Positions 159 to 42,050 of a DNA stretch of 64,000 nucleotides are shown piece by piece. A model generated the notes under the pieces. That model was not told the DNA's origin. It saw only the letters and a list, made by a program, of their open reading frames with translations, and searched no databases. Source of the DNA: an uncultured delta proteobacterium (GTDB taxonomy: Bacteria; Desulfobacterota; Desulfobacteria; Desulfobacterales; JAFDCJ01); the NCBI GenBank assembly GCA_963769935.1, contig CAVYNY010000022.1, positions 32,001-96,000 of the forward strand, written 5' to 3'. Each line of letters starts with the position of its first letter. The first letter of the stretch is position 1. Position numbers and translations under genes: made by a program.

Positions 159-280
159 GGTGTCCTTCCTTCATTGGATGTAAAGGGATTTTTTAAAGGC
201 ATCATCCTGATCACCGGCTGTTTGCCTTTCAGCGGCCTGCAAAATCTTGCAAAAGGATGTCTACAGTCTTTTGGAAGATG

Positions 281-302
281 GAATACATGATTGAACCCAT
301 AT
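281..302 (+). promoter_or_regulatory. 22-bp regulon box upstream of kinase 606
   Basis: GAATACATGATTGAACCCATAT; half-site GTCTACAG at 259 (22 bp upstream). Confidence 0.65.
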
Positions 303-605
303 TGTTTTAAGTTGTTTTTTTTCCAAAAATTAATTAGATAAAGAAGAACAGGATGCCGGCCGGGAAAATGACGGCGTCCGAATAGGGCGAAAAGGCAATC
401 CGGAAAGTGCCGCAGATAAAGACAGGCAAGAGAGTCACCAATTCGAATATGTACACGAGCTTTTCATATAATCAGATCGCCTGATTCAAAGGAACGGTGC
501 AATGGGCCATAAGAAAATGGTCCTTTTAATCGTTGCTGACAATAAGGCGATCCGGGCGATTAACGCATTCTGGCAATTGGCCAGGGTTCCGGAGGACACA
601 ATCAG

Positions 606-1907
606 ATGCCGGATAAAGCTAAGCCGCTGCATATTCTTCTGATCGAAGACAACGAGCACGACCGCATTGCCTTTCAGCGGGTTATAGAAAAGGAATGCGT
701 CGGTTGCGATCTTACGGTCTGTGAACGGGCTGAAGAAGCCGAGCACCTGCTGAAGCGTGCCGACAACGCCTTTGACATAGTGGTGCTGGATTATGATTTG
801 CCCGGCATGAATGGGCTGGATTTTTTTAAGATGGTGCGTCGGCAGCAGAATTTGCCGCCGTTTGTGATGCTGACCGGGGCAGGCTCGGAGAGACTTGCCG
901 TGAAATCACTCCAGGCGGGGATTCATGATTATGTGGTCAAGGACACCGGCTTGGGGTATCTAAATCTGCTGCCGGTGGTTTTGACCGGGGCAGTGCGCCG
1001 GCACACAAATGACCTGGCGCGTCAGGCCGCTGAAGCGGCTTTGAAAAGAGCCCACGCTGAGCTGGAGTCTAAAGTTCGCGAACGAACCGCCGACTTGGCC
1101 CTGACGGTTCAAGCGCTGGAAATTGAAATTGAAGAACGTCGTCAAACCGAGGCTGCGCTGCGCCAATCCCAAAATCAGCTGCGTAAATTATCGCAAAAGA
1201 TCCTGGATTCGCAGGAAAACGAGCGCAAACTGATCTCCCAGGAAATCCACGACAGTATCAGCGGCAGCCTGGCAGCCATCAAGCTGGCGCTGGAAGAAAA
1301 ACTCGCCTCCATGGGACGAAAGCCGGCCGCAAATGTAATTTCGCTGGAGAAAATTCTTTCCCACATCGAGGAAATCATTGTAGAATCCCGCAGGATTTCG
1401 GCGCATCTGCGTCCATCCCTGCTGGATGATCTGGGATTATTGGCAACCATAGACTGGCTCGGCCGTGAATTTGAGCAACTGCATCCGAATTTAAGAATTG
1501 AGCAGCAGCTGGATATAACGGAAGACCAAATTCCTGAAATGTTGAAAGTGGTGATCTACCGTGTGCTGCAGGAAGCGATGAACAATGTGGCCAAACACAG
1601 TGGCGCTACCAGAGTTCGCCTGCTGTTAGCGGCCCGGAATAATCGCATAGAGCTTACCGTTGCGGATAACGGCTGTGGATTCGATCCCGCAGAAATAAAA
1701 TCTTCCGAGTCATCGGCGGTCAGCGGATTCGGTTTGTCAGGCATGGTGGATCGCACCCAACTTTGCGACGGGAAGTTTAAGATTTCTTCGGAAAAGGGGA
1801 AGGGCACGACGGTACACATCTCTTTGCCGTGCGGTCCTGATTCGATCGGCGGTTCGATGCCATCCCCTTCACCTGAAAACAATGCCGCACTCCGCAAGTC
1901 CGGATGA
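606..1907 (+). CDS. Cytoplasmic hybrid histidine kinase: REC + HisKA_3 + HATPase_c
   Basis: REC motifs LLIEDNEHD/VVLDYDLPGMNG; H-box ERKLISQEIHDSISG; N-box QEAMNNVAKHS; DNGCGF; no TM segment. Confidence 0.92.
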   Translation: MPDKAKPLHILLIEDNEHDRIAFQRVIEKECVGCDLTVCERAEEAEHLLKRADNAFDIVVLDYDLPGMNGLDFFKMVRRQQNLPPFVMLTGAGSERLAVKSLQAGIHDYVVKDTGLGYLNLLPVVLTGAVRRHTNDLARQAAEAALKRAHAELESKVRERTADLALTVQALEIEIEERRQTEAALRQSQNQLRKLSQKILDSQENERKLISQEIHDSISGSLAAIKLALEEKLASMGRKPAANVISLEKILSHIEEIIVESRRISAHLRPSLLDDLGLLATIDWLGREFEQLHPNLRIEQQLDITEDQIPEMLKVVIYRVLQEAMNNVAKHSGATRVRLLLAARNNRIELTVADNGCGFDPAEIKSSESSAVSGFGLSGMVDRTQLCDGKFKISSEKGKGTTVHISLPCGPDSIGGSMPSPSPENNAALRKSG

Positions 1908-2055
1908 CACCCGGCAACCTTGTTCAAGTCTGTCTGCGAAATGCGTAAATAGTCACTTTTTAGCCGATCGAAGACCTCTCCCCATTAACCTTTTTAAATT
2001 CTATAATTTAACTTTCTGATTCCGATTCAGCCAAAATACATTTATACCTCGTGGC

Positions 2056-2077
2056 AAATACGGGATTTCCCTTATTT
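2056..2077 (+). promoter_or_regulatory. 22-bp regulon box upstream of kinase 2321
   Basis: AAATACGGGATTTCCCTTATTT; half-site AAATACAT at 2034. Confidence 0.75.
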
Positions 2078-2320
2078 CCTCTAGTGCCGAGCCGATTAAT
2101 ATTTACAATTGAGCTTGCAGCAGCGCGGTATCGAAAATCCCGCCTGCCATGCAAGGCCTGCGCGGGCAGGTTGTCGACGATGTTGACGACTGCTTGGATT
2201 TATTGAAATCTATTCAAATGATTTTGCGATAATGGCGCTGCCCCAAAGTGGCCGCTTCTTCCAAGCGTTGTCCCGGAAGGAGCATAGAATTTTCCTAAAA
2301 GATTATTCGAAGAATCAGCC

Positions 2321-3508
2321 ATGGCCGATATTACCCATAGTTCCGCATCTTCACCGATCAACATTCTTTTGATCGAAGACAATGAACACGACCGGGCCGC
2401 ATTTGCAAGAGCACTGCGCAAGTCGGAAAAGGCCTTTAGAATATCGGTGTGTGAAAAGGCCGAAAATGCGCTGCATAAACTCACGGCAGGCAAGGTGGTA
2501 TATGATCTGGTTGTCGTGGATTATGATTTGCCGGGGATGACCGGCATGGAATTTTACCGTCGGCTGCGGCATATGAATAATCTGCCGCCGTTTGTAATGC
2601 TGACCGGGGCCGGTTCGGAAAATCTTGCGGTCGAAGCCTTGCAGGCCGGTATGTACGATTACATCATCAAGGATCAGGGGCAGGGTTATCTGAAACTGTT
2701 GCCCCTAAAACTGGCGAACATCAAACAGCGTAAAAACGAGCGCAAGACCGGGCGCAGGGCCCAGGTGGAACTGAAAAAAGCCCATGACGAGCTTGAGAAA
2801 CGCGTGGCGACCCGCACGACCGAGTTGCTGCAATCCCAGATGCGGCTGCGGCTGCTGTCGCGCGAGATATTGGAAGCCCAGGAAAACGAACGCAAACTGG
2901 TGGCCCGGGAGATTCACGACAGTATCTCCGGTGACCTGGCGGCCATTAAAATATGTCTGGAAGAAAGACTGCACAGGATGAAGGGCAGACCCCTGGACGG
3001 CACCATATCTTTAGAAAAAATAATCGCCACCATCGACGATACCATTCATGAAACCCGCCGCATTTCAGCCTATTTGCGGCCATCGACGCTCGATGATCTG
3101 GGACTGGTGTCGACAATTGGCTGGTTTTGCCGTAGATTCGAAAAATATCACCCGCAAATTCGCGTGGAGCGGCGATTCGAAATTGAAGAAAATGACATTC
3201 CCGAGCAATTGAAAGTTGTTGTTTACCGGATTCTGCAGGAGGCCATGCACAATGTGGCCAAACACAGTGAAGCCGATCGGGTGCAGGTAGGTTTAGTGAA
3301 ATTTGGAAACGCATTAAGATTGAGCATTCAGGACAACGGCAACGGATGTGGTTTGGATTTTGAGAAAATCAGTTCCCACCCGCACCTCATGAGCGGGTAC
3401 GGTCTGGCCAATATGCAGAATCGAGCTGAAATTTGCGGCGGGAGGCTTAAAATCGCATCAAAGCCGGGAGCGGGCACATCCATTCACCTGACGTTGCCGT
3501 GCAGCTGA
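2321..3508 (+). CDS. Cytoplasmic hybrid histidine kinase: REC + HisKA_3 + HATPase_c (paralog of 606..1907)
   Basis: Shares ILLIEDNEHDR, DYDLPGM, NLPPFVMLTGAGSE, EIHDSISG and QEAMHNVAKHS-type motifs with 606..1907. Confidence 0.92.
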   Translation: MADITHSSASSPINILLIEDNEHDRAAFARALRKSEKAFRISVCEKAENALHKLTAGKVVYDLVVVDYDLPGMTGMEFYRRLRHMNNLPPFVMLTGAGSENLAVEALQAGMYDYIIKDQGQGYLKLLPLKLANIKQRKNERKTGRRAQVELKKAHDELEKRVATRTTELLQSQMRLRLLSREILEAQENERKLVAREIHDSISGDLAAIKICLEERLHRMKGRPLDGTISLEKIIATIDDTIHETRRISAYLRPSTLDDLGLVSTIGWFCRRFEKYHPQIRVERRFEIEENDIPEQLKVVVYRILQEAMHNVAKHSEADRVQVGLVKFGNALRLSIQDNGNGCGLDFEKISSHPHLMSGYGLANMQNRAEICGGRLKIASKPGAGTSIHLTLPCS

Positions 3509-3538: not shown

Positions 3539-4204
3539 TCAGTCTTTTTTCGCCACCAGACCATGCTCGATGGCATACGCCGTCAAGGCAGCTGCATTGT
3601 GCAGATCCAGCTTGTTCATAATGTTGGCCCGGTGCTTTTCGACCGTTTTTACGCTGATATGCAGCATGTCGGAAATTCCTTTATTTTGAAAACCTTCTCC
3701 CAGCATCTTTAGAACCTCTTTTTCCCGCTGGGTGATGGTGTCCCATGCTGTTTTGGATTTCAGCTTTTTGCGGCCGGTCATGTAGCCTTCCAGCACGTTT
3801 TCCGAAATCGACGGGCTGATATACCGTTTTCCCTGCAGCACGCTCTCGACGGCCACCATCAACTCACTGCGTCCGGCATCTTTCAGACAATAGCCGTCGG
3901 CACCGGCCTCAAATGCCTCCAGCACGTATTGGTCGGATTCATGGATGGTCAGCGCCATAATTTTTATTTCCGGAAATTGATTTTTGATTTCCTTCATTAC
4001 GGAGATACCGTTCATTTTGGGCATGGAAAGGTCCAGCAGCAAAAGATCCGGCCGGCATTTCTTGACAGTTCGGATCGCTTCAAGACCATCCCCGGCTTCT
4101 CCGATCACCTCCAGGTCGGCCTTGTCTGAAAGCAGTGATTTTAAACCTTCCCGGAACAGCTTGTGATCTTCCACAATGACGATTTTTGTTTTACCTTCGA
4201 TCAT
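3539..4204 (-). CDS. NarL/LuxR-family DNA-binding response regulator
   Basis: REC (IVIVEDHKLFREGL, LLDLSMPKMNG) + LuxR HTH (ITQREKEVL..ISVKTVEKHRANIMNKL). Confidence 0.95.
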   Translation of the reverse strand: MIEGKTKIVIVEDHKLFREGLKSLLSDKADLEVIGEAGDGLEAIRTVKKCRPDLLLLDLSMPKMNGISVMKEIKNQFPEIKIMALTIHESDQYVLEAFEAGADGYCLKDAGRSELMVAVESVLQGKRYISPSISENVLEGYMTGRKKLKSKTAWDTITQREKEVLKMLGEGFQNKGISDMLHISVKTVEKHRANIMNKLDLHNAAALTAYAIEHGLVAKKD

Positions 4205-4535: not shown

Positions 4536-4557
4536 CAATGGGGTATACAATGTAGTT
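4536..4557 (-). promoter_or_regulatory. 22-bp regulon box upstream of NarL-type regulator
   Basis: Minus strand AACTACATTGTATACCCCATTG; half-site AAATACTG 22 bp upstream (4558-4579); weaker plus-strand box at 4567-4588. Confidence 0.6.
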
Positions 4558-4727
4558 GCGGGATAACTGGACAGTATTTAACTTATTTCCACAATGGTTA
4601 GCTGCGATCGGACTTGACGGAATAAATTTCGATTTTTAGTTTAGATCATAGTTAGGCAGTAATCCCAATCCTTCCTTAAATTGACCCAAATTTGGGCGGG
4701 AGGAATTTTAAAACACAAGGAGCATCC

Positions 4728-5072
4728 ATGATCGAGCAATATCAGGAAGGCAGCTATCTAAAAATAGACGGCACCCAGTATTTCAACGATCTAAAAATTA
4801 TTGACGGACGGGTGAAGGGGCGCTGGTGGCGAAGCCAAGGCCATCGGCTGCAGATTGAAGACATCTTTGATATTTTAGCTGCCAAACCGGAAATATTTGT
4901 TATCGGAACGGGGTATGCCGGCAATATGCGCGTGCCGGATGATGTCCGGTCCGACCTTGAACATAAAGACATCGGCGTCGTAACGGCTGACACCGCCCAC
5001 GCAATTGAGATCTTCAACCGGCTGTATGCGGAAGGCAAGCACGTCGCCGGAGCGTTTCACCTGACCTGTTAG
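4728..5072 (+). CDS. Mth938-like (DUF498) protein
   Basis: AAGGAG RBS; PEIFVIGTG..G.M and C-terminal AGAFHLTC typical of family. Confidence 0.85.
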   Translation: MIEQYQEGSYLKIDGTQYFNDLKIIDGRVKGRWWRSQGHRLQIEDIFDILAAKPEIFVIGTGYAGNMRVPDDVRSDLEHKDIGVVTADTAHAIEIFNRLYAEGKHVAGAFHLTC

Positions 5073-5482
5073 ATTGATTTTTTCATTTCCAATACATTTT
5101 TGCATTCACGGTAGTCATAGCTGACGTCATCCATCAACTTTCTGACCAAATGAATGCCGAGGCCGCCGATGTTGCAGTTTTCAAGATCATCATAGGTCAG
5201 CTCCGGTTCCGCGACGTTGAGGGGATTAAATGGCCGGCCGCTGTCTTCGACCCGCAGCACCAATGCTCCGTTAACCTGCGGTATGGCGCTGATTTTGATA
5301 AAATGATCTTGACAGTCCCTATAGGCATAGGCGATAATATTGGAAACGACCTCTTCCAATACAAGATTCGTTTCAACAATATACTTTTTCGAAAGGCGTA
5401 ATTTCCGTCCCAGTTTTTCAATGAACCTGTGAAGTTTGTCCAGCTCAGCCATATCGTTTCTGAGTTTTAATACCTCTTTCAT
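5069..5482 (-). CDS. RsbW-type anti-sigma factor / Ser-Thr kinase (HATPase_c_2)
   Basis: LEEVVSNIIAYAY, EDSGRPFNPL, GGLGIHLVRKLMDDVSY. Confidence 0.88.
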   Translation of the reverse strand: MKEVLKLRNDMAELDKLHRFIEKLGRKLRLSKKYIVETNLVLEEVVSNIIAYAYRDCQDHFIKISAIPQVNGALVLRVEDSGRPFNPLNVAEPELTYDDLENCNIGGLGIHLVRKLMDDVSYDYRECKNVLEMKKSI

Positions 5483-5569: not shown

Positions 5570-5591
5570 AAATGGGGTCTGAACGGTATTT
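5570..5591 (-). promoter_or_regulatory. 22-bp regulon box upstream of RsbW-like gene
   Basis: Minus strand AAATACCGTTCAGACCCCATTT; half-site AAATACTT at 5592-5613; TATATAAT 20 nt downstream. Confidence 0.78.
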
Positions 5592-5781: not shown

Positions 5782-5803
5782 GGATACATTCTATCCTTTA
5801 TTG
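5782..5803 (+). promoter_or_regulatory. 22-bp regulon box upstream of PAS kinase
   Basis: GGATACATTCTATCCTTTATTG; half-site AAATACTG at 5760. Confidence 0.6.
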
Positions 5804-5999: not shown

Positions 6000-8021
6000 A
6001 TGAAAAAACATATCGGCAGCCCCTCAAAATCGTCCGCTTCACCAAGAATCAAACGGAAGGATGGAATTACAGTTCAGGATGTGGACACCCCGGCAGCTCG
6101 ACGTCCGGTTGCGCATTCGGCGGCGGAGGCTGTCTCCGGGGTCGGGGTCGGCTCTTTCAAGCACAAGATCCTGGCGTCGTCCCTAAACGGCATATATATC
6201 TACAACCTGGCGACCGGCCTCAGCACCTTCATCAATCCCCAGTACACCCGCCTGACGGGTTACACCCTTGAGAATCTTCAGGCTTTGAAGGGCGCGGGAT
6301 TATTCGCATTGGTTCACCCGGAAGATCAAGAACGGACGGCCGCCCACAGGGAGCGTATCGGCCGGGCCGGCGATGATGAAACCTTGGAGATCGAATACCG
6401 TTTCAAACGCGCCGACGGACGCTGGATGTGGTGTTTGTCAAAAGAGGCTGTCTTCGAGCGCGACGGGCAAGGTCACGTGCTCCGGGTTATCGGCGCCTTC
6501 CTGGACATCACCGACCGCAAGACGAGCAATACAAAACTGCAACACGAGCGCGAGCTGCTGCAAAAGATCATTGACACGATTCCGATAATGATCAGCATTT
6601 ACGATCCGGACTTGCGGCGCTTCAGCTTCAACAACGAATTCCGGCGCACTCTGGGCTGGTCGGAACATGACCTGAAGGGCGGCGATGCGATGCAAAAATT
6701 TTATGCCGACCCCTCCGAGCGCGAGGCAGCGCGGCAGTTCATGGAATCCCTGGAAACCGGCTGGCAGACCTTTAAGGTGACTGCCAGGGACGGCGGCACC
6801 GTCGAAAGCTCGTGGGCCAATATTCGCCTGTCCGACGATACCCGGATCGGTGTCGGCATCGATGTCCGGGAACGCACGGCCCAGCTGAAAGCAACCGTGG
6901 CAGCCCTGGAAAACGAAATGCGGGTCCGCAAAGACTTGGAGAATAAACTTCGGCAGTGGTCGCGGGTATTCATGGACGCGGCTGATCCGATCATCATCGA
7001 GAACCTTTCCGGCACCATCATCGATATGAACCGGGAGGCGGAAAGAAAATTCGGATGGAAGCGTCAAGAGTTGATCGGCAAATCCATGCGCAGCCTGATC
7101 CCTCCCTCCGGGTATCAAAAGGCGGAGAGCCTGCGCGAACGCTGTCGCCGCGGTGAGGAGGTGCGAAGCTGGGAGGCTATTCGGCAGGACCAGAAGGGAC
7201 TGATTTTTTCGGTGCTGCTGACCGCTTTTCCCCTGTTGGATGAGTCCGGAAATATCATATCCGTGGCGACCATTGCCAAGGACATTACCTTGCGCAAGCA
7301 GATGGAAAGGGAGCTGGCAAAATCCCACAAGCATCTTCAGGAGTTGTCGCGCAAGAGCATCGAAGCCTTGGAAAACGACCGCCGGACCACCGCCAAGGAA
7401 CTGCACGACCGTATCGGCGCCAGCCTGGCGGCCATTAAATTCAGGCTGGAGGAGATTGTCGAGCAGATTGTCCAAAAGCCGAAAAAAGCGGCCGCTTCCC
7501 TCGACGAAACGGTTTCCAACCTGCAGACCGTCATCAAGGAGACCAAACAGATTGCGGCCCAATTGCGGCCCACCATACTCGATGACCTGGGTCTTTTGTC
7601 CACCATCAGCTGGCTTACGAGACAATTCTTAGAACAGTTCAGCGGTATTAAATTGAATTCGCAAATTGAGGTCCGGGAAGAAGATATCCCGGATACGCTC
7701 AAAATCGTCATATATCGCGTGCTGCAGGAATCCCTGCATAATGCCGCCAAACATAGTGAGGCCACCGAAGTTAACATCCGCCTGGATAGCGAAGCTGATC
7801 GCATTGTGCTTGAAGTTGCCGACAACGGCCGCGGCTTTGATGTCCAGAATACACTCAGCTGCGAGGATCCCCTCAGCGGGTTCGGTCTGGCGGGCATGAT
7901 AGAGCGCGCCGAGATTGTCGGTGGCTCCCTTACGATCGATTCTTCTTTCGGAAACGGTACGCACATCAAAATGACGCTCAACCCGGAGCCTTATAACGCC
8001 AAATTGTCGAACTCAGCCTGA
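6000..8021 (+). CDS. Cytoplasmic multi-PAS sensor histidine kinase (HisKA_3)
   Basis: Three PAS/PAC repeats (VHPED..EYRFKRADGRWMW; ..DITLRK); H-box ELHDRIGASL; QESLHNAAKHS; DNGRGF. Confidence 0.92.
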   Translation: MKKHIGSPSKSSASPRIKRKDGITVQDVDTPAARRPVAHSAAEAVSGVGVGSFKHKILASSLNGIYIYNLATGLSTFINPQYTRLTGYTLENLQALKGAGLFALVHPEDQERTAAHRERIGRAGDDETLEIEYRFKRADGRWMWCLSKEAVFERDGQGHVLRVIGAFLDITDRKTSNTKLQHERELLQKIIDTIPIMISIYDPDLRRFSFNNEFRRTLGWSEHDLKGGDAMQKFYADPSEREAARQFMESLETGWQTFKVTARDGGTVESSWANIRLSDDTRIGVGIDVRERTAQLKATVAALENEMRVRKDLENKLRQWSRVFMDAADPIIIENLSGTIIDMNREAERKFGWKRQELIGKSMRSLIPPSGYQKAESLRERCRRGEEVRSWEAIRQDQKGLIFSVLLTAFPLLDESGNIISVATIAKDITLRKQMERELAKSHKHLQELSRKSIEALENDRRTTAKELHDRIGASLAAIKFRLEEIVEQIVQKPKKAAASLDETVSNLQTVIKETKQIAAQLRPTILDDLGLLSTISWLTRQFLEQFSGIKLNSQIEVREEDIPDTLKIVIYRVLQESLHNAAKHSEATEVNIRLDSEADRIVLEVADNGRGFDVQNTLSCEDPLSGFGLAGMIERAEIVGGSLTIDSSFGNGTHIKMTLNPEPYNAKLSNSA

Positions 8022-8367: not shown

Positions 8368-9138
8368 TCATTCCCGGGTGTCCTCGGGTGTCAGTTCATC
8401 CGGCGGCGTCATCGGTACGTTGTCCGACAGGGAGGTGTAGGCATCCACCTGCTCATCCTCACCGTCCATCATGATATCTTTTTCAAGCTTTTCCGATATG
8501 GGCGCGGGAGTCCGTTCCCGGCGTTCCCAAGGCTGGCGGTCGATTTTTATATCGTCAACGGTTTCGTCGAAGTCCAGTTTGTCGTTGATGATTTCGAGCA
8601 ATATTTCATGCTCCGCATTGCTGGGAAGCACGCCGCTCAGGTATACGACACCGTCCTCGCAGGTGATGTCGAGTTCCTCCATATCCACCCGACCGTCCTC
8701 CTGCAGCGCATCATGAATGGTTTCCTGCATATCATCGTCGGTCAGCGCTTCTTTGTCCAGCGAGACCGCAGGCGACTCAATTCCTCCTTGGGCAAAAGAT
8801 TCCCTCATGCCGGCACACGGAACACAGTATCTGGCCCAGGGTACCACCTGCAGACGCTTGACGGAAATGGGCCTGCGGCAGGCTTCGCATTGGCCGTATC
8901 TGCCTTCATCCATTTTAGTCAGGGCATGGTCGATTGCGCGAAGCTCAGCCTGACCCCGTTCATCCAGCTGCGCCAATTCGCGGGACAGGGTTTCCTTGCT
9001 GGCGGTTTCTTCGAGCTCTTTTTCCGGCTCGTGCAGGGCCTCCCAGGAGGTATTGACCGTGCGCCGAAACTCAAAGATGTCCCTGCGGCGATCCAGCAAA
9101 TTTTCCCTGAGCGCCCTGATGTCTTTTTTGCTTAGCAT
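8368..9138 (-). CDS. TraR/DksA C4 zinc-finger protein fused to BON-like domain
   Basis: Coiled coil + YGQCEAC..RL.VVPWARYCVPC; then IHDALQEDGRVD..ITCEDGVVYLSG BON-like segment; GGAGG RBS. Confidence 0.82.
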   Translation of the reverse strand: MLSKKDIRALRENLLDRRRDIFEFRRTVNTSWEALHEPEKELEETASKETLSRELAQLDERGQAELRAIDHALTKMDEGRYGQCEACRRPISVKRLQVVPWARYCVPCAGMRESFAQGGIESPAVSLDKEALTDDDMQETIHDALQEDGRVDMEELDITCEDGVVYLSGVLPSNAEHEILLEIINDKLDFDETVDDIKIDRQPWERRERTPAPISEKLEKDIMMDGEDEQVDAYTSLSDNVPMTPPDELTPEDTRE

Positions 9139-9280: not shown

Positions 9281-9302
9281 AAATGGGGTCAATCCGGTAT
9301 TT
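9281..9302 (-). promoter_or_regulatory. 22-bp regulon box upstream of DksA-BON gene
   Basis: Minus strand AAATACCGGATTGACCCCATTT; half-site CAATACTG at 9303-9324. Confidence 0.8.
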
Positions 9303-10617: not shown

Positions 10618-11620
10618 TTAGAGGAGTTCCGATACCTGTACCAATAGATCCAGATTCTTGGCAATAAAAATCAATTCGGCGTTTTCCACCTGAGCATGAC
10701 GCGTTTGAATCCATGATTCGAATGCATTTTGATCCAGGGCCGGGTGGCCTTTAAGTTCAGTGTGGATCGTATCGAGGATAAAATGCAGGAAATAGGGTTC
10801 ATCGGCGGGATATCCTCCCGACTCGGGCAAAACGATCCAATCAGAGCCGCCGGCCGCCAGGACGGCGGCATCCGCAGCCCGGAGGCGGTCGAATAGATTG
10901 CGGCCGGTGTGACAGCCGCCGGTTTTGCGGCCGTCGGTAATGCGCTCATCCATGCTTTGGTTGTACAATTGCAGGATCAGCCTATCAAAGGCAGGGTTCT
11001 AATTCCGGCAGGAAAATGGTTTCACCGTCATAGTTCAGCGTCAGGTACAATAAACCGCCCGGTCGTATGAAATTGATGAATTGACGCAGCACTACGTCGA
11101 TATCGATCAAATCCATAAATGCATGGGCAATGCCCAAATCCCACTGCCGCCCGCAATTTTCACCTGACAAAAAGTGATACACATCGGCCTGCATAAATTT
11201 GATCCATATTTCGCCTTCTTGAGTTCGAATAAGGGTGGTGTTTTCCGAACGGGGACTGAAGCCGAAGCCTCCGGCGGCAGCCCAGCGCCCCAGTTGCCGG
11301 CGGGATTCACCGACACTGACTGCATCCGAGTCAACTGCCGTGTAGTCTGCGAAGATTAAAAGTTTCCAATCAACCAACCGTTCGATCATCGTCCCGATTC
11401 CGGCACCCAATTCCAAAACGCTCAATCGGTTTGCGTGTCTGCTTTTGGGCAAAGCTGCGGCCAGCGTCTCCCGGACATGTTCATTCAACGCACGATCATC
11501 CACGCTCTTCTTGGATGACAGGTAGCGTATAAAACGTTGTCCGTTTATAGTCGACACGGTAAATTTCACCTCAGCGAGCCCCAGACGATATGAGCCTGAG
11601 GCTCGTTCCTGATTTGTCAT
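10618..11620 (-). pseudogene. Class I SAM-dependent methyltransferase split by a +1 frameshift near 10995 (pseudogene or sequencing error)
   Basis: RYLSSKKSVDDRALN, VLELGAGIGTM; removing one C from GAACCCTGCC joins ..PELEPAFDRLILQLYNQSMDER.. Confidence 0.75.
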
Positions 11621-11693: not shown

Positions 11694-11715
11694 GTATGGG
11701 GTGAAGACTGTATTT
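11694..11715 (-). promoter_or_regulatory. 22-bp regulon box upstream of methyltransferase
   Basis: Minus strand AAATACAGTCTTCACCCCATAC; TATTTT 20 nt downstream. Confidence 0.7.
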
Positions 11716-12294
11716 TGGCATCGCCAAACCCTGATAAGCCGGCCGCAGCACAGGGGAGAATGAAAACCTGGGCGCGCGGAGAAGCGAAAATACCCTTTAC
11801 CGGACAATTGGAGAGATATTCCTATATTCCTATCAATCAGGTTGAGCCGTATGAAAAACGCGGATTAGGCGGCGTAAGACCGCTGGCCTGGTATTATCCG
11901 TTGCCGGGAGGGGCCTGGTGGCGCAGGCGGATGGGCGGCTATCCGGAATATTCGACCGAGGCCCCGGTCCGAGTATTTGGCAGGTACGGTGAATTTTTAA
12001 AGCAATTACATGATGCACAGTATTTACCGGGCCTTCCACGGCGTCTATATTTCATCAGATCCTGAAAACGCTGCGGTGGTGCTAAGCGACCCCAATCCGT
12101 GAATCAGCAGACGGAAGCAGTTGCGTCTAAAGGCCCGGGGCAGCCGTCGCAAAGAAAATCTGATTGTCGCTTCCATTTATTTAGCGCGTTGCTTGCCGGG
12201 CGCGGGAAGGTCCAGACGGCGATTTCAGGAATGAAGGTCGATATCGGATCGACGGCAGGGTCTGCTAATATGACTTCTAAGGGAGGTAACTAAA

Positions 12295-13578: not shown

Positions 13579-13600
13579 AAATACAGGATTCACCTTATTT
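13579..13600 (+). promoter_or_regulatory. 22-bp regulon box upstream of STAS-like gene
   Basis: AAATACAGGATTCACCTTATTT; TACCTT 20 nt downstream. Confidence 0.8.
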
Positions 13601-14170: not shown

Positions 14171-16594
<2,424 letters not shown>

Positions 16595-17273: not shown

Positions 17274-17295
17274 AAATGGGGTATATCCGGTATTC
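17274..17295 (-). promoter_or_regulatory. 22-bp regulon box upstream of CBS gene
   Basis: Minus strand GAATACCGGATATACCCCATTT; TATTCT 20 nt downstream; half-site CTGTACAT 22 bp upstream. Confidence 0.8.
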
Positions 17296-17331
17296 TTCAG
17301 ACTGTTATCATGTACAGTATTGGATAATGCG

Positions 17332-17353
17332 AAATACAGGGTTGAACCTATTT
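17332..17353 (+). promoter_or_regulatory. 22-bp regulon box upstream of 17423 gene
   Basis: AAATACAGGGTTGAACCTATTT; TAGGTT 20 nt downstream; half-site ATGTACAG at 17310. Confidence 0.78.
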
Positions 17354-18613: not shown

Positions 18614-18635
18614 CAATAGAGTGAATCCTGTATTT
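18614..18635 (-). promoter_or_regulatory. 22-bp regulon box upstream of 18480 gene
   Basis: Minus strand AAATACAGGATTCACTCTATTG; TCGTACG half-site 22 bp upstream. Confidence 0.75.
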
Positions 18636-20094: not shown

Positions 20095-20116
20095 AAATAG
20101 GGTTTATAATGTATTT
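20095..20116 (-). promoter_or_regulatory. 22-bp regulon box upstream of citrate synthase
   Basis: Minus strand AAATACATTATAAACCCTATTT; TAGAAT 19 nt downstream; GTATACAG half-site 22 bp upstream. Confidence 0.72.
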
Positions 20117-20200: not shown

Positions 20201-20222
20201 AAATAGGTGATTTACCCCATTG
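20201..20222 (+). promoter_or_regulatory. 22-bp regulon box upstream of UDPGP remnant / YcbK gene
   Basis: AAATAGGTGATTTACCCCATTG; half-site GCATACCG at 20179. Confidence 0.65.
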
Positions 20223-25617: not shown

Positions 25618-25639
25618 AAATACACGATAGACCCCATAG
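25618..25639 (+). promoter_or_regulatory. 22-bp regulon box upstream of coiled-coil/DUF1328 genes
   Basis: AAATACACGATAGACCCCATAG; TAAATT 20 nt downstream; AAATAG half-site at 25596. Confidence 0.75.
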
Positions 25640-26616: not shown

Positions 26617-26625
26617 TCTGGAAAT

Positions 26626-28120: not shown

Positions 28121-28308
28121 CAGAAAACCGGTCATGCCGAAATGCAGGCAAAGGTTCAATATGCAATAGGTTCAAGTATGTATTTCGCTGATCATTCGAC
28201 CTTATCTAATTGTTCCGCCATGAAAATAAATTATACGGGGCGCTGATTAAGCCGCCTCTTTTAAGGCGGCAGCTAATGTTTAAGCCAAATACAGTCTGAA
28301 TCTCCTAA

Positions 28309-28330
28309 ATGTACATGTTTGACCGGATTT
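28309..28330 (+). promoter_or_regulatory. 22-bp regulon box upstream of 28410 gene
   Basis: ATGTACATGTTTGACCGGATTT; AAATACAG half-site at 28287; TATACT exactly 20 nt downstream. Confidence 0.7.
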
Positions 28331-28409: not shown

Positions 28410-28781
28410 ATGCCGGATCGCATGGGTATGCTCAATAAGATCAAAGAAGGGATGAAAGTCTACGACAACACCGGGGACGAGGTCGGCACGGTTGAGTTCC
28501 TCCATTTCAGTGAAGCCAACGGCGACGGACATGCCGTCGCAGCGGCACCGCCGGAGCAGTCCACTCAGTCGGACCTGGTAGATTTTGTAAGGAAAATGTT
28601 CGGGGCCGACAATCTGCCCCGGGAACTGCGCGAGCGGCTGCTGATGCACGGCTTCATCAGGGTGGACAGCGCCAAGCTGTTCGGACCCGACCGTTACGTC
28701 ATGTTCGATCAAATCGCCCGCGTAGAGACAAATGGCGTGCATCTTAGGGTGGAGGATGCTCAAAATCTGTTGAAGGCCTAA
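28410..28781 (+). CDS. PRC-barrel-like (DUF2171-type) hypothetical protein
   Basis: AGGAGG RBS; IKEGMKVYDNTGDEVGTVE..GFIRVD..DRYV. Confidence 0.78.
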   Translation: MPDRMGMLNKIKEGMKVYDNTGDEVGTVEFLHFSEANGDGHAVAAAPPEQSTQSDLVDFVRKMFGADNLPRELRERLLMHGFIRVDSAKLFGPDRYVMFDQIARVETNGVHLRVEDAQNLLKA

Positions 28782-30406: not shown

Positions 30407-30428
30407 CAATAAGGTAAAGCCTGTATTT
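30407..30428 (-). promoter_or_regulatory. 22-bp regulon box upstream of ferritin-like gene
   Basis: Minus strand AAATACAGGCTTTACCTTATTG; TATTTT 20 nt downstream; GAATACAT half-site at 30429-30450. Confidence 0.8.
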
Positions 30429-32310: not shown

Positions 32311-32809
32311 AGCCAGGTCAGATTAAACCCGATAGGCTGAAGAAAAATGCCGTGGAACGACGGAATATTGAGATGTTGGAATAAAGGGTTCAGAAGGATG
32401 AAATCTTTTTTCGAAGCAACTCGTACGTCAGAGGTTAATCCGCGGATCTTTTTTAAACCTAATATTCCATTGCGCTACCCTTCCATCGTTGCATTGGACG
32501 TCTAAAGGCCAACGCCACTCCCGTGGTATGAAATCAACGCCTCACCCTCCGGCTGGGATTCTTTGCAGATATCTATATTTCTTTATTCCTACGTCAAACC
32601 CAAATAGTAAATACTGTCAATCATGTATCCGTATTCCTAAAATACAGTATAAAATTATATTTATGCCCGATGCATAACTTTGCAGCAGTCGCCATAATTT
32701 ATTATAAAATATAATCCACCCCGACATCCGCATTAATTCATTGACAGGTCACTGTATTTGCGCCAATGTATCGGCATATCCGGTGAATCGGGGCTGTTTG
32801 TTTCCTTTC

Positions 32810-33687: not shown

Positions 33688-33709
33688 TTATACTTTCCCA
33701 GACCTATTC
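33688..33709 (+). promoter_or_regulatory. 22-bp regulon box upstream of EAL-like gene
   Basis: TTATACTTTCCCAGACCTATTC; AAATACTT half-site at 33666; TAAATT 20 nt downstream. Confidence 0.55.
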
Positions 33710-33780: not shown

Positions 33781-34437
33781 ATGTTTGCTTCCATTGCCCG
33801 CCAGGCAATATATAACCGTAAAGAGGAGATAATCGGGTATGAATTGCTCTACCGCTCCTCGATCCTAAATAGATGTCCAGCGGTGAACGGCGACCGGGCA
33901 ACCATGGCGCTGCTCCACCGGCTGCTTCAAACCGGCAGTATCGAACATGCGACCAATGGGAAATTGGCATTTGTCAATTATACCCGCAACCTGCTTCTGG
34001 AAAAAATCCCACTGACTACGCCGCACGATACCGGCGTGGTTGAGATTCTGGAGGATGTCCGGCCGGAGCGTCTATGGTGGAAGCCTGTGAAAACTACGGA
34101 GAAGGGATATGTAATCGTCCTGGATGATTTCATTTACCGCCGCGAACTGGAGCCTTTAATTCTTCTGGCCGACATCATAAAAATCGATTTTCACTGCGAA
34201 TCGCCCCATAAAATCGAAATGGATGTGAAAAGGCTCGCAAGCTATCCGGCAAAACTTCTGGCTGAAAAAGTGGAAACCGAATCCGAATTGAACATCGCAT
34301 TAGGCCTTGGATTCATCTATTTTCAAGGTCATTTCTTTTCGCAGGCAGAACCTTTTACCCGGACTGGTTCAGCGGGGCCTTCGCAGACTCCGCGCCGCGA
34401 GAAGGCGGAGGCCGGCCGCTTGGCCAAAATAGGATAG
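33781..34437 (+). CDS. EAL-like domain protein (YuxH/HDOD-associated type, lacking HDOD)
   Basis: ARQAIYN..IGYELLYR, FVNYT, VEILED, LDDF, LLAEKVET, FQGHFFS. Confidence 0.78.
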   Translation: MFASIARQAIYNRKEEIIGYELLYRSSILNRCPAVNGDRATMALLHRLLQTGSIEHATNGKLAFVNYTRNLLLEKIPLTTPHDTGVVEILEDVRPERLWWKPVKTTEKGYVIVLDDFIYRRELEPLILLADIIKIDFHCESPHKIEMDVKRLASYPAKLLAEKVETESELNIALGLGFIYFQGHFFSQAEPFTRTGSAGPSQTPRREKAEAGRLAKIG

Positions 34438-36063: not shown

Positions 36064-36085
36064 AAATACACGATCGACCCTATTT
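36064..36085 (+). promoter_or_regulatory. 22-bp regulon box in divergent TIGR01777/PRC-barrel promoter region
   Basis: AAATACACGATCGACCCTATTT, with adjacent block 36042-36063 (minus-strand right half ACCCTATTG). Confidence 0.72.
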
Positions 36086-36483: not shown

Positions 36484-37368
36484 ATGATCAACAAACTGCA
36501 AAGAATCGGCATTTCACAAATAATGACGGCCATCGTTTTCTGTATTGCACTAGCGATGCCTGCCGGGGCTGCAGAAAATCCGGCCGGGGCCCTGCGGGCC
36601 AGTGCCATGATCGATCAACCGATTTTCAATGGCCAGGGACAGGAGCTCGGTGATCTTGATGATCTCGTCGTCAAAAGAAACGGCAGCATCAAAACCGCGT
36701 TGATATCGGTCGACGGCTTTCTGGATGTAGGCGAAAAACTGGTATCCGCCCCGTACAAGTCTTTAAAATTTGCCGACGGCAAAATTAATTTGGACATCAC
36801 CAAAAAGCAACTCGAGGAGCGGCCCGAATTCGACTATCGCAAAAAAGGTCTATTTACAAACTATGGCTACCGTCTTAATCCTTATTACGGCATGATGCCC
36901 GGACCCTACGGGACTTACGGCAGAGGCCTGCCGCCGGGGTATCGCCAGCAGTGGTCGGATGAAGGCGTCCCCATACCCAACAGTGGACCTCAAGGCGGTG
37001 GCGGCCAGGATCAGCAGAATGACCGTCCCTATTCGCGTCATCGCGATGAAGGCGGTCACGGAATGCAGAATTGGTACAATTCCTGGAATTGGGCCCACTA
37101 TCCGGCGCGAATGCTGGTAAGCGTCATATTAGGGCAGGCGGTTATCGACAAGCAGGGCGAGGAAGTCGCGACAGTGGAGGATCTCATTATCAGCACCGCT
37201 GGAAAGGTAGATCAGCTCATACTGTCTTACGGCGGCTTTTTAGATTATGGCGACAAGCTGGTGGCGGTACCCTATTGCCCCATCGGCTTTACCAACCGCG
37301 GAATCACCTACGACATTACCCGGCGGGAGATCGAAAACCTGCCGAAATTCACGGGCTTAAATCGTTAG
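36484..37368 (+). CDS. Secreted protein with two PRC-barrel domains
   Basis: Signal peptide; RASAMIDQPIFNGQGQELGDLDDL..GFLDVGEKLV; second repeat VIDKQGEEVATVEDL..GGFLDYGDKLVAVP. Confidence 0.88.
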   Translation: MINKLQRIGISQIMTAIVFCIALAMPAGAAENPAGALRASAMIDQPIFNGQGQELGDLDDLVVKRNGSIKTALISVDGFLDVGEKLVSAPYKSLKFADGKINLDITKKQLEERPEFDYRKKGLFTNYGYRLNPYYGMMPGPYGTYGRGLPPGYRQQWSDEGVPIPNSGPQGGGGQDQQNDRPYSRHRDEGGHGMQNWYNSWNWAHYPARMLVSVILGQAVIDKQGEEVATVEDLIISTAGKVDQLILSYGGFLDYGDKLVAVPYCPIGFTNRGITYDITRREIENLPKFTGLNR

Positions 37369-39310: not shown

Positions 39311-39332
39311 AAATAGATTATTCACTCCATTT
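39311..39332 (+). promoter_or_regulatory. 22-bp regulon box upstream of DUF5752-treT
   Basis: AAATAGATTATTCACTCCATTT. Confidence 0.6.
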
Positions 39333-39585: not shown

Positions 39586-40245
39586 ATGTGCAATCCTTTT
39601 GGCGTAACCGATTGTGCCCTGATTGCCATTGCCACCGGCGAAAAAGCCCAAAACATAAGAGAAATGCACAACCGGCTCATGCGGACCTATGACGAAGGTG
39701 TCATATACTATCATTTCTGGGGCGGAATGCTGCGCCCTCATTTTATCGATCCGGAATATCAAAATCATTTTGCCGGATGGGCCTACCACGACCTCCACGA
39801 CCGACGACTGGCTGAAAAGCTGTCTATTATCAATCCGGCGCGCTATGCTTCCATCGAGGAATTGCGCCAGCAAGTCATCGAAGTCTTCGAAGAACGGATG
39901 GACGAAGATGACGCTGCATCGCGGGTGGAGGCGGAACACCCTTTTTTTTTCATGCGATCGCAGATCGTTGTCTTCGACACACACCTGCGGGTCGATACGC
40001 CCGAGGCGCTTACCGGCTTGATACCGGATTTATCGCTGGGCAGCCTTTTTTATCACTTCATTGATTCCCGACGTCGAACCCCGTCGGGCGGCGATGACTT
40101 TTCCGAATGGCTCAAATGCTGGGGAGACCGATATCATGACTTGGTGGATGAGATCCATGCCATCGATCCCTATTTTAACAGTCTGATTGAATTGCGGGAG
40201 GATCTGGCAGAAATATTTTCTTTTCATTTGAAAACCGAGGAATAA
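39586..40245 (+). CDS. DUF5752 family protein (TreT partner)
   Basis: IATGEKAQN..E..IYYHF..EY.N.FA.W; duplicated SLFYHF..DDFSEW; directly upstream of treT. Confidence 0.8.
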   Translation: MCNPFGVTDCALIAIATGEKAQNIREMHNRLMRTYDEGVIYYHFWGGMLRPHFIDPEYQNHFAGWAYHDLHDRRLAEKLSIINPARYASIEELRQQVIEVFEERMDEDDAASRVEAEHPFFFMRSQIVVFDTHLRVDTPEALTGLIPDLSLGSLFYHFIDSRRRTPSGGDDFSEWLKCWGDRYHDLVDEIHAIDPYFNSLIELREDLAEIFSFHLKTEE

Positions 40246-40247
40246 AC

Positions 40248-41486
40248 ATGACTGAATTGCTTGACCAATATGCCCCCATTGTCGGGGCGAACGTCATCGA
40301 TCATCTGCGCCAGTTGGCCGAACCTCTCAAAGGAATGAAAGTGATGCATGTAAATTCCACGCGCGAGGGGGGCGGAGTGGCCGAAATACTTCACCGCCTG
40401 ATACCCCTGAAGCAGGAACTGGGATTGGATGCGACCTGGGAGATCGTTGCCGGGGATTCACAGTTTTATCAGTGCACCAAAAAGATGCACAACGCCCTGC
40501 AGGGCGATCGTGTCGGCATTTCGAGCGAACTGCTGCAACACTATGAAGCTGTTAATGCCGATAATTTTGAAAGATTGAAAGCTCTCTTGCAGGAGGCGGA
40601 TATTGTCATTATTCATGACCCCCAGCCGGCCCCCTTGTTGAAATACTGCCGGGCCCGCAAGGGCAAATGGATCTGGCGCTGTCATATCGATGCCAGCCGG
40701 CCATTTCGTCCGGTGTGGAAGCATTTGCAAAATTTTATCAGCGATTACGACGCCAGCATCTATTCGCTGCCCGCCTTTGCCCAGCCCATGCCCCATTCGC
40801 TTTACATCATTCCTCCCAGCATTGATCCGCTGAGTGAAAAAAACGTTGCGCTCGATAGGGCAGAAATTCAGGGAGTCGGCAATAGCTATGGCCTCGATCC
40901 CGAGCGGCCGATCATCTCTCAGATTTCCCGTTTTGACCGGTTCAAAGATCCCGTCGGTGTGATCCGGGCCTACCGGATGGCCAAGTCCTTCGGTCCGCCG
41001 CTGCAGCTGATCCTGGCCGGTGGAACCGCCACCGATGACCCTGAAGGCGAGGAGGTCCTGGCTGAAGTCACGGCCGCGGCTCAGGATGATCCGGATATTC
41101 ATGTGCTGATGCTGCCGCCGGATGCCCATCGCACCATCAATGCCATCCAGCGATTATCCACAATTGTCGTGCAGAAATCACTCAAGGAAGGGTTCGGGCT
41201 GACCGTCACCGAGGCACTGTGGAAAGGCAAGCCGGTTATCGGGGGGGATGCCGGCGGAATTCGGCTGCAGGTAGTCAACCACCAAACGGGTTTTCTGGTG
41301 AATACGGCCGAGGGGGCCGCTCTGAGAATCCGTTATTTGCTGAAACACCGTGATCGCCTGCAGGAAATGGGAGAGACGGCCAGAACCTTTGTGCTGGAAA
41401 ATTATCTGCTGACCCGCCACCTCAGAGAATACCTGACGCTGATGCTTGCGGTCATCAGAAACAGCAGCGATAGAATCGAGCTTTAG
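40248..41486 (+). CDS. treT: Trehalose glycosyltransferring synthase (GT4)
   Basis: HVNSTREGGGVAEIL, IHDPQP, WIWRCHID, PSIDPLSEKN, SRFDRFKD, EGFGLTVTEALWK. Confidence 0.88.
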   Translation: MTELLDQYAPIVGANVIDHLRQLAEPLKGMKVMHVNSTREGGGVAEILHRLIPLKQELGLDATWEIVAGDSQFYQCTKKMHNALQGDRVGISSELLQHYEAVNADNFERLKALLQEADIVIIHDPQPAPLLKYCRARKGKWIWRCHIDASRPFRPVWKHLQNFISDYDASIYSLPAFAQPMPHSLYIIPPSIDPLSEKNVALDRAEIQGVGNSYGLDPERPIISQISRFDRFKDPVGVIRAYRMAKSFGPPLQLILAGGTATDDPEGEEVLAEVTAAAQDDPDIHVLMLPPDAHRTINAIQRLSTIVVQKSLKEGFGLTVTEALWKGKPVIGGDAGGIRLQVVNHQTGFLVNTAEGAALRIRYLLKHRDRLQEMGETARTFVLENYLLTRHLREYLTLMLAVIRNSSDRIEL

Positions 41487-41489
41487 TTC

Positions 41490-41850
41490 TGAGGTTCAGA
41501 TAAAGAAGCTCATAGCTGATAGCTCCCCGGTTAAATCCGCTTCGCCCCGGTTAAACAGGAAAAAAGGTTTAACTGGGCAGGCTGATCCATTGATATTTAA
41601 CGGGGTAAACATAGCTCATAGTTAAAAAACGCCGCAGAACGTCGAATCTCGAAGGAGGAATCATAATTCAACCTCCGTCGGCTTTGATTGAGAGCTAATA
41701 TCAAATAACTTCTACCCCCCTCCTATCTTCTATCTGTTATCCCTTTCCCACCCTCCCACCTTCTTACCCTCTCACCTTCCCACCTTCCCATCTTCCCACC
41801 CTCTGCCCCTTGCCCTTTGCCCTCTGTCTTCTGTATTCTGACACCTTATC
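41490..41850 (-). repeat. Mosaic intergenic repeat family, copy B, with nested palindromic insertion
   Basis: Reverse complement of 41611-41750 aligns with 51470-51626 and 54308-54434. Confidence 0.8.
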
Positions 41851-41918
41851 TTCTGCAACGATCTAAACGATCTAAACCATCCAAACCATTCCCCCAAAAT
41901 ACATATTCACAATTCCGC

Positions 41919-41940
41919 AAATACAGGATGGATAGTATTT
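41919..41940 (+). promoter_or_regulatory. 22-bp regulon box upstream of glgE operon
   Basis: AAATACAGGATGGATAGTATTT; AAATACAT half-site at 41897; TAGATT 19 nt downstream. Confidence 0.68.
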
Positions 41941-42050
41941 ACCCATTTAGATTAATGCTTAGATTAAAAAATGATCATCTTTAATATTCATAAATTAAAT
42001 CTAAAATTCTTGTATCCACAAATTTCGAAAACACAGATTAAGGACTCAGA

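Follow-up and report, generated by a model that had tools for sequence, protein, structure and literature searches.

A polarized 22-bp box as the predicted activator site of a NarL/FixJ-type general-stress regulon in an uncultured member of the Desulfobacterales

The closest described counterparts of the DNA element considered here are binding sites of NarL/FixJ-type response regulators. At yeaR, NarL occupies a site at -43.5 directly upstream of the -35 element, with the RNA polymerase alpha subunit's C-terminal domain (alpha-CTD) in the minor groove between the monomers, according to the accessible portion of PMC10853779. SsrB of Salmonella uses an 18-bp degenerate 7-4-7 palindrome, in which it matters how one heptamer is oriented toward the gene (accessible portion of PMC2837388). 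The only systematic regulator-to-site map of a sulfate reducer that turned up, from the same phylum as the organism studied here, covers the response regulators of Desulfovibrio vulgaris, and its accessible portion gives DVU2577 and DVU2675 without a motif (PMC3333781). The element in question is a 22-bp box that recurs in a 64,000-nucleotide stretch (the window) of an uncultured delta proteobacterium of the Desulfobacterales (assembly GCA_963769935.1, contig CAVYNY010000022.1, positions 32,001 to 96,000).

The survival of oxygen and drying by sulfate reducers has mostly been treated one gene at a time, and we found no global regulator for these conditions in Desulfobacterales in the literature searched. 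An earlier note on the window had proposed that about 20 copies of the box are operators of an island-wide stress/trehalose regulon governed by one NarL/LuxR-type regulator. The best explanation overall, to which we assign a probability of about 0.7, is that a homodimer of a NarL/FixJ regulator with KHR in its recognition helix (KHR-type) activates about 65 sigma-70 promoters as one general-stress regulon, as predicted from sequence. Although the organism is known from its genome alone, the question is directly testable because a regulator group, a precise site, and about 65 promoters can be named.

The box and its placement in promoters

All 20 of the 22-mers given in the earlier note were found exactly once, at the expected place and strand, and each lay outside called genes (dicodon gene model) with a same-strand open reading frame (ORF) ahead. 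A matrix built from these sequences was scanned over the whole study genome (G000; 7.99 Mb, 77% coding, 96.7% complete, 5.4% contamination, dsrA present), and 20 column-shuffled matrices scanned over the same genome served as the control. At 16 bits or more, the scan yielded 71 non-coding and 13 coding sites (shuffled non-coding mean 4.45, maximum 15); at 20 bits or more, it yielded 57 non-coding sites versus a single coding site (shuffled non-coding mean 0.6, maximum 3). Because the observed counts far exceed those of the shuffled matrices, we consider about 65 of the genome sites to be real, and about 65 genes or operons genome-wide are headed by the box. Leave-one-out scoring gave core values of 18.6-29.7 bits for 16 of the 20 window sites. 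The boxes at 5782, 28309, and 41919 reached 8.6-10.9 bits, yet flanking elements are present at these positions, and the box at 33688 is doubtful with a core score of -7.6 bits; a further doubtful window site lies at 25058 on the plus strand. The box is almost certainly a genuine factor-binding site.

The box is not restricted to an island as had been proposed, since 51 of the 71 sites lie outside window positions 1-42100 and 20 lie inside. A wider cluster at 28-102.5 kb of contig C22 (contigs of the study genome carry C-numbers) holds 26 of the 71. Among the 51 held-out sites, which are outside the window and did not enter the training set, 46 aim at a gene start. Of 251 genomes belonging to the order, 116 also contained the strict box pattern, usually in one to three copies and often near the control level; in the phylum, the pattern was present in 51 of 301 genomes. 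Rfam gave no match in the window, and no tRNA was found there.

Column information around the 20 window sites revealed two extra blocks, AATACWG at -20 to -14 and an AT-rich segment at 43-48, while the DNA between the conserved blocks had no information content. In held-out sites chosen by core only, TAC was present at -18 in 28 of 51, compared with at most two at each of 15 other offsets, and TA was present at 43 in 21 of 51. Among relatives, 141 sites from 80 loci of other genomes contained T43 in 97 cases, A44 in 103, and T48 in 77. Similarity to TATAAT peaked at position 43 (2.72), and similarity to TTGACA peaked at box position 20 (3.51 of 6), a value that is partly circular because positions 20-22 belong to the matrix; in two other genomes, G027 and G030 (G-numbers except G000 denote genomes other than that studied), TTGAC or TTGAT stands literally at the end of the box. 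The promoter layout thus comprises a sigma-70-like -35 element at box positions 20-25, a 17-nucleotide spacer, and a -10-like hexamer at 43-48, with a lone half-site at an upstream offset of 22 bp. With the transcription start deduced from the -10 element, this layout puts the dyad axis at about -43.5, and the 16-bp core ends directly before the -35 element. On that start, the box has the location of a NarL-type activator site, centered near -43.5 and adjoining a sigma-70 -35 element. The box is likely placed as an activator site and not as the operator that had been suggested, and its regulator very probably acts as an activator. By analogy to NarL, alpha-CTD in the minor groove between monomers could explain the conserved T11 and A14 of the box.

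The divergent boxes at 17274 and 17332 share a single TGTACA that doubles as the upstream half-site for both, and neither promoter was detected in a consensus promoter scan. This half-site is contained in a CTGT-N8-ACAG palindrome (window 17302-17317) that is probably incidental and that we take to resemble the enterobacterial LexA box. A subgroup of strong boxes elsewhere in the genome (C10:601900, C10:616222, C20:315000, C22:535759, C32:86075, and C32:92220) has poor -10 scores at 43-48 and a common downstream TGAGCA/TGAACA-like stretch, several members also having an upstream GGTAC; they may constitute a subclass of promoters, or else be copies of a single ancestral one.

The candidate regulator and the two halves of its predicted site

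The window encodes a NarL/FixJ response regulator, RR-A, which had been named as the candidate and belongs to exactly the group that co-occurs with the box. Its receiver domain (PF00072, 103 bits) possesses E12/D13, D58, T86, and K108, and its C terminus is a LuxR/GerE helix-turn-helix (HTH; PF00196, 65.8 bits) with the helix KTVEKHRAN at K186-N194. The best solved relatives are VraR, DevR, and NarL (DevR 3c3w at E 1.5e-31), the best NCBIfam match is PRK15369 at 195 bits, under the family cut-off of 242, and a protein search returned generic names only. Close homologs come from Desulfobacterales. Three HisKA_3 kinases encoded within 4 kb of RR-A are candidate partners. Of the five full NarL-type regulators in the study genome, RR-B (contig C11) is 55% identical to RR-A, contains the same helix, and is likewise adjoined by a box, making it an equal candidate; no box of at least 14 bits was found in the regions around the other three. 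The acting paralog may be RR-A, RR-B, or both.

Comparisons with other genomes connect the box to this helix. In 80 loci around RR-A homologs (loci around regulator homologs carry L-numbers), 137 sites of at least 14 bits were found in 1.23 Mb (112 per Mb, in 67 of 80 loci), compared to 8 with the reversed matrix. An additional 22 KHR-type loci, 19 of them from genomes with zero or one strict match, contained 16 sites in 246 kb (65 per Mb), and 18 other NarL regulators were accompanied by 3 sites in 213 kb (14 per Mb; reversed matrix 2). Within the order, a close HTH homolog was present in 18 of 22 genomes with at least five strict matches. Outside the order, a homolog at E <=1e-20 was found in 19 of 20 genomes with two or more strict matches and in none of 14 box-free genomes of the same families. 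Three of the four exceptions within the order, the box-rich genomes G097, G030, and G057, are without the RR-A/RR-B group and possess regulators of a separate clade that share its helix, as read from a quick regulator tree (102 rows, with every second locus of L009-L088 omitted), the fourth exception being G207; in G097, the box heads the operon of one such regulator. Four genomes with a single PF00196 gene each possess two to seven strict asymmetric boxes, which indicates that a homodimer likely suffices. In three of these four, the regulator gene is directly adjoined by a complete box that includes the upstream half-site and the -10 element, and two of the three boxes have a divergent single receiver gene, as on C11. 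These associations make it highly likely that the box is read by a KHR-type NarL regulator with the helix KTVxKHR[AS]N, in agreement with the single NarL/LuxR-type regulator proposed earlier. Genus members with a close RR-A orthologue on a long contig have 14-27 strict matches and most others have one to four, which suggests that RR-A and the island arrived together with the box expansion.

The inverted repeat had been described as established from the core, but the two arms of the 7-2-7 core as quoted pair at just 3 of 7 positions, and complementarity in the 20 window sites ranges from one to six of seven, mostly two or three. The distal half (L) reads AAATACA[GT][GT] and the proximal half (R), read inwards, AAAT[AG]GGGT; the mirrored positions 6 and 17 are unlike, with C in 65 of 71 and 6 of 71 sites, respectively. 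In the study genome, we counted 70 mixed L-R sites along with 7 R-R and 6 L-L sites, the symmetric forms being at background level. The dyad is seen only in relatives, where 102 loci contained 70 mixed, 26 L-L, 14 R-R, and 13 unclassified boxes. Shifted spacings yielded at most four in these loci, symmetric forms beside KHR-type regulators occurred only at the box spacing, and no L-L or R-R forms were found in 239 kb around other NarL regulators. The symmetric variants thus reveal the 16-bp 7-2-7 dyad with a single fixed spacing expected of a NarL-type activator site. Among the 70 mixed boxes of relatives, 47 have the -10 element on the R side and 6 have it on the L side. Because the symmetric variants keep the spacing and the -10 element mostly sits on the R side, we interpret the box as a true dyad with position-dependent preference. 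The possibility that R-R sites are bidirectional promoters was rejected, as TA at 43 was present on both strands in only 2 of 14.

Two further observations concern the regulator homologs. RR-A homologs with strong boxes occur in records labelled Gammaproteobacteria, Hyphomicrobiales, and Myxococcota (L024, L027, L037, and L045), which may reflect horizontal transfer or mis-binning, and the target kinase in L024 contains a Tll0287-like domain. A pyrimidine-rich box variant with a clear TTGAC/TTGAT end occurs in G027, G030, G048, G057, and G097 (L089-L108 and L146; 14-55 strict matches), together with a different upstream palindrome, GGTAG-N7-CTACC, at a 21-bp offset; this variant accompanies the separate clade of regulators with the KHR helix, which are often present as a pair of sister paralogs.

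Predicted target genes and features of the window

The window boxes stand before genes for three HisKA_3 kinases, RR-A, an RsbW-like protein, DksA-BON, CBS, and citrate synthase, as well as DUF2171, DUF2383, PRC barrel, DUF5752-TreT, and GlgE-TreS-GlgB-TreZ proteins, and the run behind box 20201 includes DisA, PfpI, and a PQQ-type dehydrogenase (Table 1). Among the target names given earlier, STAS corresponds to a weak match only (E 0.03) and treT is the second gene behind the DUF5752 gene. Elsewhere in the genome, where 115 of 140 fetched genes were scanned, targets include OtsAB, FtsH followed by desulfoferrodoxin, Usp, additional PRC barrels, a GH15 trehalase-like protein, EgtB, DegP, glucose-6-phosphate dehydrogenase, aldo-keto reductases, a ferritin-like protein, and a PAS-GAF kinase (C27), along with the oxygen-using cytochrome c oxidase II, NuoA, NuoF, and KhpA followed by pyruvate dehydrogenase (PDH) E1. 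Among 92 of 96 first ORFs scanned in relatives, we identified desulfoferrodoxin (5), single receivers (7), Usp (4), dodecin (2), BON (2), rubrerythrin, OsmC, Hsp20, and a redoxin, about one-third of the ORFs being without a family. By family assignment, the predicted target set is one of general-stress genes plus oxygen use and defense. The stress or dormancy character proposed earlier agrees with this set, which extends beyond trehalose to aerobic respiration and oxygen defense. Of nine HisKA_3-like kinases selected by motif, four lie no more than 600 bp from a box.

Ten sigma-70 region-2 hits were obtained in the 96.7% complete genome; the non-ECF-like ones are two RpoD-like proteins, RpoH, and FliA, and no RpoS- or SigB-like factor was found among the ten. 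No SigB/F-type sigma factor was found, yet boxes precede both the gene for the RsbW-like protein and the weakly STAS-like ORF. In five loci of relatives (L023, L026, L054, L076, and L084), the box precedes a sigma factor gene, RpoH-like in the three tested, which suggests a regulatory cascade; rpoH of the study genome has no box.

Since intergenic DNA of relatives does not align across the boxes, footprinting was carried out per orthologue. The box was kept upstream of 12 of 18 target orthologues versus 2 of 21 non-target controls, both positive controls being second genes of box-led operons, a comparison affected by selection bias in that loci L195-L210 were picked around known matches. By gene, the box was retained upstream of 3 of 4 close RR-A orthologues, 2 of 3 of DksA-BON, 2 of 2 of the 102-aa ORF, 1 of 1 of the DUF2171/PRC-like gene, and 2 of 2 of glgE (strong boxes). 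Upstream of kinase 2321 it was kept in 1 of 3 orthologues and upstream of DUF5752-treT in 0 of 2.

Table 1. Boxes and associated features of the window. For minus-strand sites, the coordinate used as a name is the leftmost base.
Feature	Position	Strand	Remarks
Box	281..302	+	Before REC-HisKA_3 kinase 606-1907; leave-one-out 22.9 bits
Box	2056..2077	+	Before REC-HisKA_3 kinase 2321-3508; upstream half-site 2035-2041; -10 near 2097-2102
Box	4536..4557	-	Before RR-A; upstream half-site 4572-4578; putative autoregulation
Box	5570..5591	-	Before RsbW-like HATPase_c_2 gene 5069-5482
Box, weak core, good flanks	5782..5803	+	Before PAS-HisKA_3 kinase 6000-8021; 8.6 core, 8.2 upstream, 5.1 for -10
Box	9281..9302	-	Before DksA-zinc-finger-BON gene 8368-9138
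Box	11694..11715	-	Before methyltransferase-like ORF 10985-11620 (weak Pfam match)
Extra near-symmetric box, absent from the earlier list	12004..12025	+	No clear target; 15.3 bits, -10 score 5.0
Box	13579..13600	+	Before STAS-like ORF 13663-13992 and single receiver gene 14156-14557
Box	17274..17295	-	Before CBS-pair gene 16804-17220; -10 at 17248-17253
Palindromic TGTACA	17311..17316		Upstream half-site shared by the two divergent boxes; each strand has TAC at -18
Box	17332..17353	+	Before 102-aa ORF 17423-17731; -10 at 17374-17379
Box	18614..18635	-	Before 89-aa ORF 18211-18480
Box	20095..20116	-	Before citrate synthase 18757-19938
Box	20201..20222	+	Before broken UDP-glucose pyrophosphorylase remnant and DUF882-DisA-PQQ dehydrogenase-PfpI-Slp run
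Box	25618..25639	+	Before 99-aa coiled-coil ORF 25770-26069
Extra box, absent from the earlier list	28164..28185	-	Facing ORF 27391-27717; 21.4 bits
Box, weak core, strong upstream half-site	28309..28330	+	Before DUF2171/PRC-like gene 28410-28781
Box	30407..30428	-	Before ferritin-like DUF2383 ORF 29732-30325
Extra near-symmetric box, absent from the earlier list	32609..32630	-	No clear target; 19.6 bits
Doubtful box (core fails leave-one-out, flanks fit)	33688..33709	+	Before ORF 33781-34437 and NfeD-like gene
Box	36064..36085	+	Before PRC-barrel gene 36484-37368
Box	39311..39332	+	Before DUF5752-treT operon 39586-41486
Near-symmetric box	41919..41940	+	Before glgE-treS-glgB-treZ operon
RR-A, NarL/FixJ response regulator, candidate activator	3539..4204	-	Receiver and GerE HTH
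Soluble REC-HisKA_3-HATPase kinase, candidate input	606..1907	+	
Soluble REC-HisKA_3-HATPase kinase, candidate input	2321..3508	+	
Soluble multi-PAS HisKA_3 kinase, candidate sensor	6000..8021	+	
glgE, treS-maltokinase, glgB, treZ; trehalose/glycogen target operon	42051..50917	+	

Additional features of the targets were noted. The DisA diadenylate cyclase behind box 20201 (window 21502-22557; 368 bits, above the cut-off) would tie c-di-AMP to the regulon. Contigs C15, C24, C25, C35, and C39 contain more box clusters with paralogous modules (PRC barrel, YfcH-NfeD, and PRC plus V-ATPase G), and small contigs may partly be contamination (5.4%). Several window genes are broken or partial, including a PPDK_N fragment (14547-15437), the UDP-glucose pyrophosphorylase remnant with stops (20250-20747), a phosphoribosyltransferase ORF with a DNA-ligase OB piece at its head (26470-27327), the DUF2383 ORF, in which the match covers the first 87 residues only, TreZ (49391-50917), which spans 477 of 545 model positions, and a GH57/DUF3536 gene split over two ORFs (51846-54170); the ribonucleotide reductase on C11 is likewise split. 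These represent either decay or assembly frameshifts.

Explanations considered and comparison with known systems

According to the homodimer model, soluble PAS and REC kinases would phosphorylate D58 of RR-A, and the phosphorylated homodimer of RR-A, RR-B, or both would bind the box with its center at about -43.5. Bound there, the dimer would recruit sigma-70 RNA polymerase to weak promoters via alpha-CTD, similar to NarL at yeaR, and a second dimer may occupy the upstream half-site cooperatively at about -65.5, as at secondary DevR sites. Positive feedback that amplifies the response would come from the boxes ahead of the regulator and of four HisKA_3 kinases, and box-controlled single receivers may drain phosphate. 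The regulon probably serves survival of air exposure and drying; we put even odds on the signal being oxygen or desiccation, the alternative being osmotic or starvation stress.

Several points weigh against this model. It leaves the preference of a homodimer for unequal halves unexplained. The promoter evidence is limited by the partly circular -35 similarity and by a -10 signal that is moderate in the study genome, with TAnnnT at 42-43 in 17 of 51 held-out sites. A small share of one metatranscriptome provided contigs of relatives that overlap portions of the genes for CBS, the 102-aa and 89-aa products, and citrate synthase, for the most part at <95% identity, with none at 17220-17363; these were uninformative and were not used as evidence because the contigs carry no start sites. 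Regulator presence alone does not suffice for many boxes: a close homolog is also present in 14 of 32 genomes of the order with zero or one strict match, and 17 of 44 other genomes in the phylum that lack the box likewise possess a homolog. Conversely, no such regulator was found in the box-bearing genomes G207 (91% complete) and G291 (360 contigs). The Fisher values and related-genome profile counts overstate significance because kin are not independent, and the footprint loci carry the selection bias stated above. The label of a stress regulon is also not universal, since the variant boxes in G027 and G030 (15 first ORFs scanned) head genes for NlpC/P60 and SLT cell-wall hydrolases, a Ras-like GTPase, a subtilase, kinases, and MetK.

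The unequal halves could be read by a heterodimer or by two different proteins side by side, and RcsB, which forms heterodimers, offers a model. This reading would account for the prevalence of mixed sites in the study genome (70, versus 7 R-R and 6 L-L at background), the sharp difference in C between positions 6 and 17, and the two sister paralogs in G027, G030, and G097, which are adjacent in G030. We nevertheless regard it as unlikely: the recognition helix is practically identical in RR-A and RR-B, L-L and R-R forms occur beside the same regulators, and asymmetric boxes are present in the four genomes with one PF00196 gene, although those assemblies are fragmented and would still permit a non-LuxR partner. 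Pairing with other NarL paralogs was rejected, as no R-R or L-L sites were found near them. The box might instead be bound by a member of another family, such as a CRP/FNR protein, with the NarL regulators as mere targets. CRP/FNR sites are 22 bp in length with AAAT...ATTT ends, and the equal length and AT-rich ends of the box, the one clear CRP-family gene in the genome (C13), and the many carriers of the NarL group without a strict box fit such an assignment. The TGTGA-N6-TCACA-like core at -41.5 is not found here, the center being at -43.5 (compared with the accessible portion of PMC10853779). The presence of the box follows the KHR regulator inside individual genera and families and also across two distinct clades with the same helix. 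Together, these points make a CRP/FNR protein quite unlikely.

Repression by the same regulator at a true operator, relieved by stress, is distinctly improbable. The 22-bp box does overlap the first -35 bases, but its 16-bp core stops just before the -35 element at a fixed distance and in one orientation (R side in 47 and L side in 6 of 70 for the -10 element), and repressor sites seldom hold so exact a register; moreover, the promoters are weak by consensus, the divergent pair having been missed in the scan. An RpoH-like gene and the likeness of the right half (CCCCAT) to the -10 element of RpoH (sigma-32) raise the idea that the whole is an alternative-sigma promoter. A sigma-32 promoter has a TTGAA-type -35 element 12-16 nucleotides before CCCCAT and heads chaperone genes. 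Only 1 of 71 sites contains TTGA in that window, no box lies within 600 bp of ten chaperone/protease genes (dnaK, groEL, clpB, htpG, lon; best 8.3 bits), a separate -10 element is located 21 bp further on, dyad variants exist, and a strict match is missing in 250 of 301 phylum genomes, so that we consider this highly improbable. Fortuitous matches in AT-rich intergenic sequence, or else a dispersed repeat, would suit the failure of site 33688 in the leave-one-out analysis and some locally duplicated copies with identical flanks in G027. This account has next to no probability given 57 non-coding sites where 0.6 are expected at 20 bits or more, flanks devoid of information between the blocks, and boxes kept where intergenic DNA no longer aligns.

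The box offers a way to recognize stress regulons in metagenome-assembled genomes and to assign numerous small genes of unknown function. Read by a homodimer, the polarized site would be a clean case for asking how the specificity of such an activator is shaped by RNA polymerase. More tentatively, and with the odds somewhat against it, the system might be the missing general-stress master switch across many Desulfobacterota, in which a multi-kinase, self-amplifying NarL-family activator takes the place of an alternative sigma factor. Air or drying would then turn on oxygen respiration (cytochrome c oxidase, Nuo, PDH, and citrate synthase), oxygen defense, and trehalose/glycogen storage in nominal anaerobes, the homodimer would read a polarized site in which distance from RNA polymerase makes selection on the two halves differ, and this pairing of helix and box would have been rewired to a cell-wall/GTPase program in another lineage.

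SigB, RpoS, and EcfG govern general stress regulons, and the gene types in those regulons overlap with the targets here in trehalose/glycogen enzymes, Usp, PfpI, PRC barrel, BON, ferritin-like, and DUF2171 proteins, aldo-keto reductases, and PQQ sugar dehydrogenase; unlike in those regulons, the present genes have an activator-type dyad before a sigma-70 promoter. DosS and DosT are GAF-heme sensor kinases, whereas the window kinases are REC or PAS proteins without GAF, a box-bearing PAS-GAF kinase being encoded on C27. The predicted system resembles DevR/DosR of Mycobacterium tuberculosis, as described in the accessible portion of PMC3177182, in its NarL-family regulator, its large survival regulon, and its tandem pairing of a conserved with a poorly conserved box, represented here by the TAC that 28 of 51 held-out sites have 22 bp upstream; the DosR analogy drawn earlier holds in this respect. 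The otsB promoter is named for DevR in the same text, and OtsAB is a target here. DevR recognizes a palindrome with GGGACT halves, whereas column counts here show AATAC in the distal half and G-richness in the proximal half only. Further differences are the PAS or REC kinases beside the regulators, the phylum, and the oxygen-using enzymes among the targets. The SsrB motif ACmTTA (accessible portion of PMC2837388) resembles the proximal half ACCYYA, but the distal half here is conserved and different, the targets are unrelated, and RR-A, at 195 bits against the cut-off of 242, is not an orthologue of SsrB. With NarL at yeaR, judged by the accessible portion of PMC10853779, the system has in common a receiver-GerE protein with HisKA_3 kinases, a 16-bp 7-2-7 site at -43.5, and a second upstream site at some promoters. 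It differs from that system in base sequence and recognition helix, in its polarized halves, in stress rather than nitrate-respiration targets, in soluble PAS/REC kinases where NarL has a nitrate sensor, and in the second site, which is 22 bp upstream here and is found at -77.5 with -44.5 at ogt. The literature searched, which extended to neither subscription journals, RegPrecise, nor the supplementary motifs of PMC3333781, contained no description of the box or regulon. The regulon is apparently undescribed, of a known mechanistic kind, and equipped with an unusual polarized site; by analogy, the predicted system works like NarL at yeaR and like DevR but belongs to neither.

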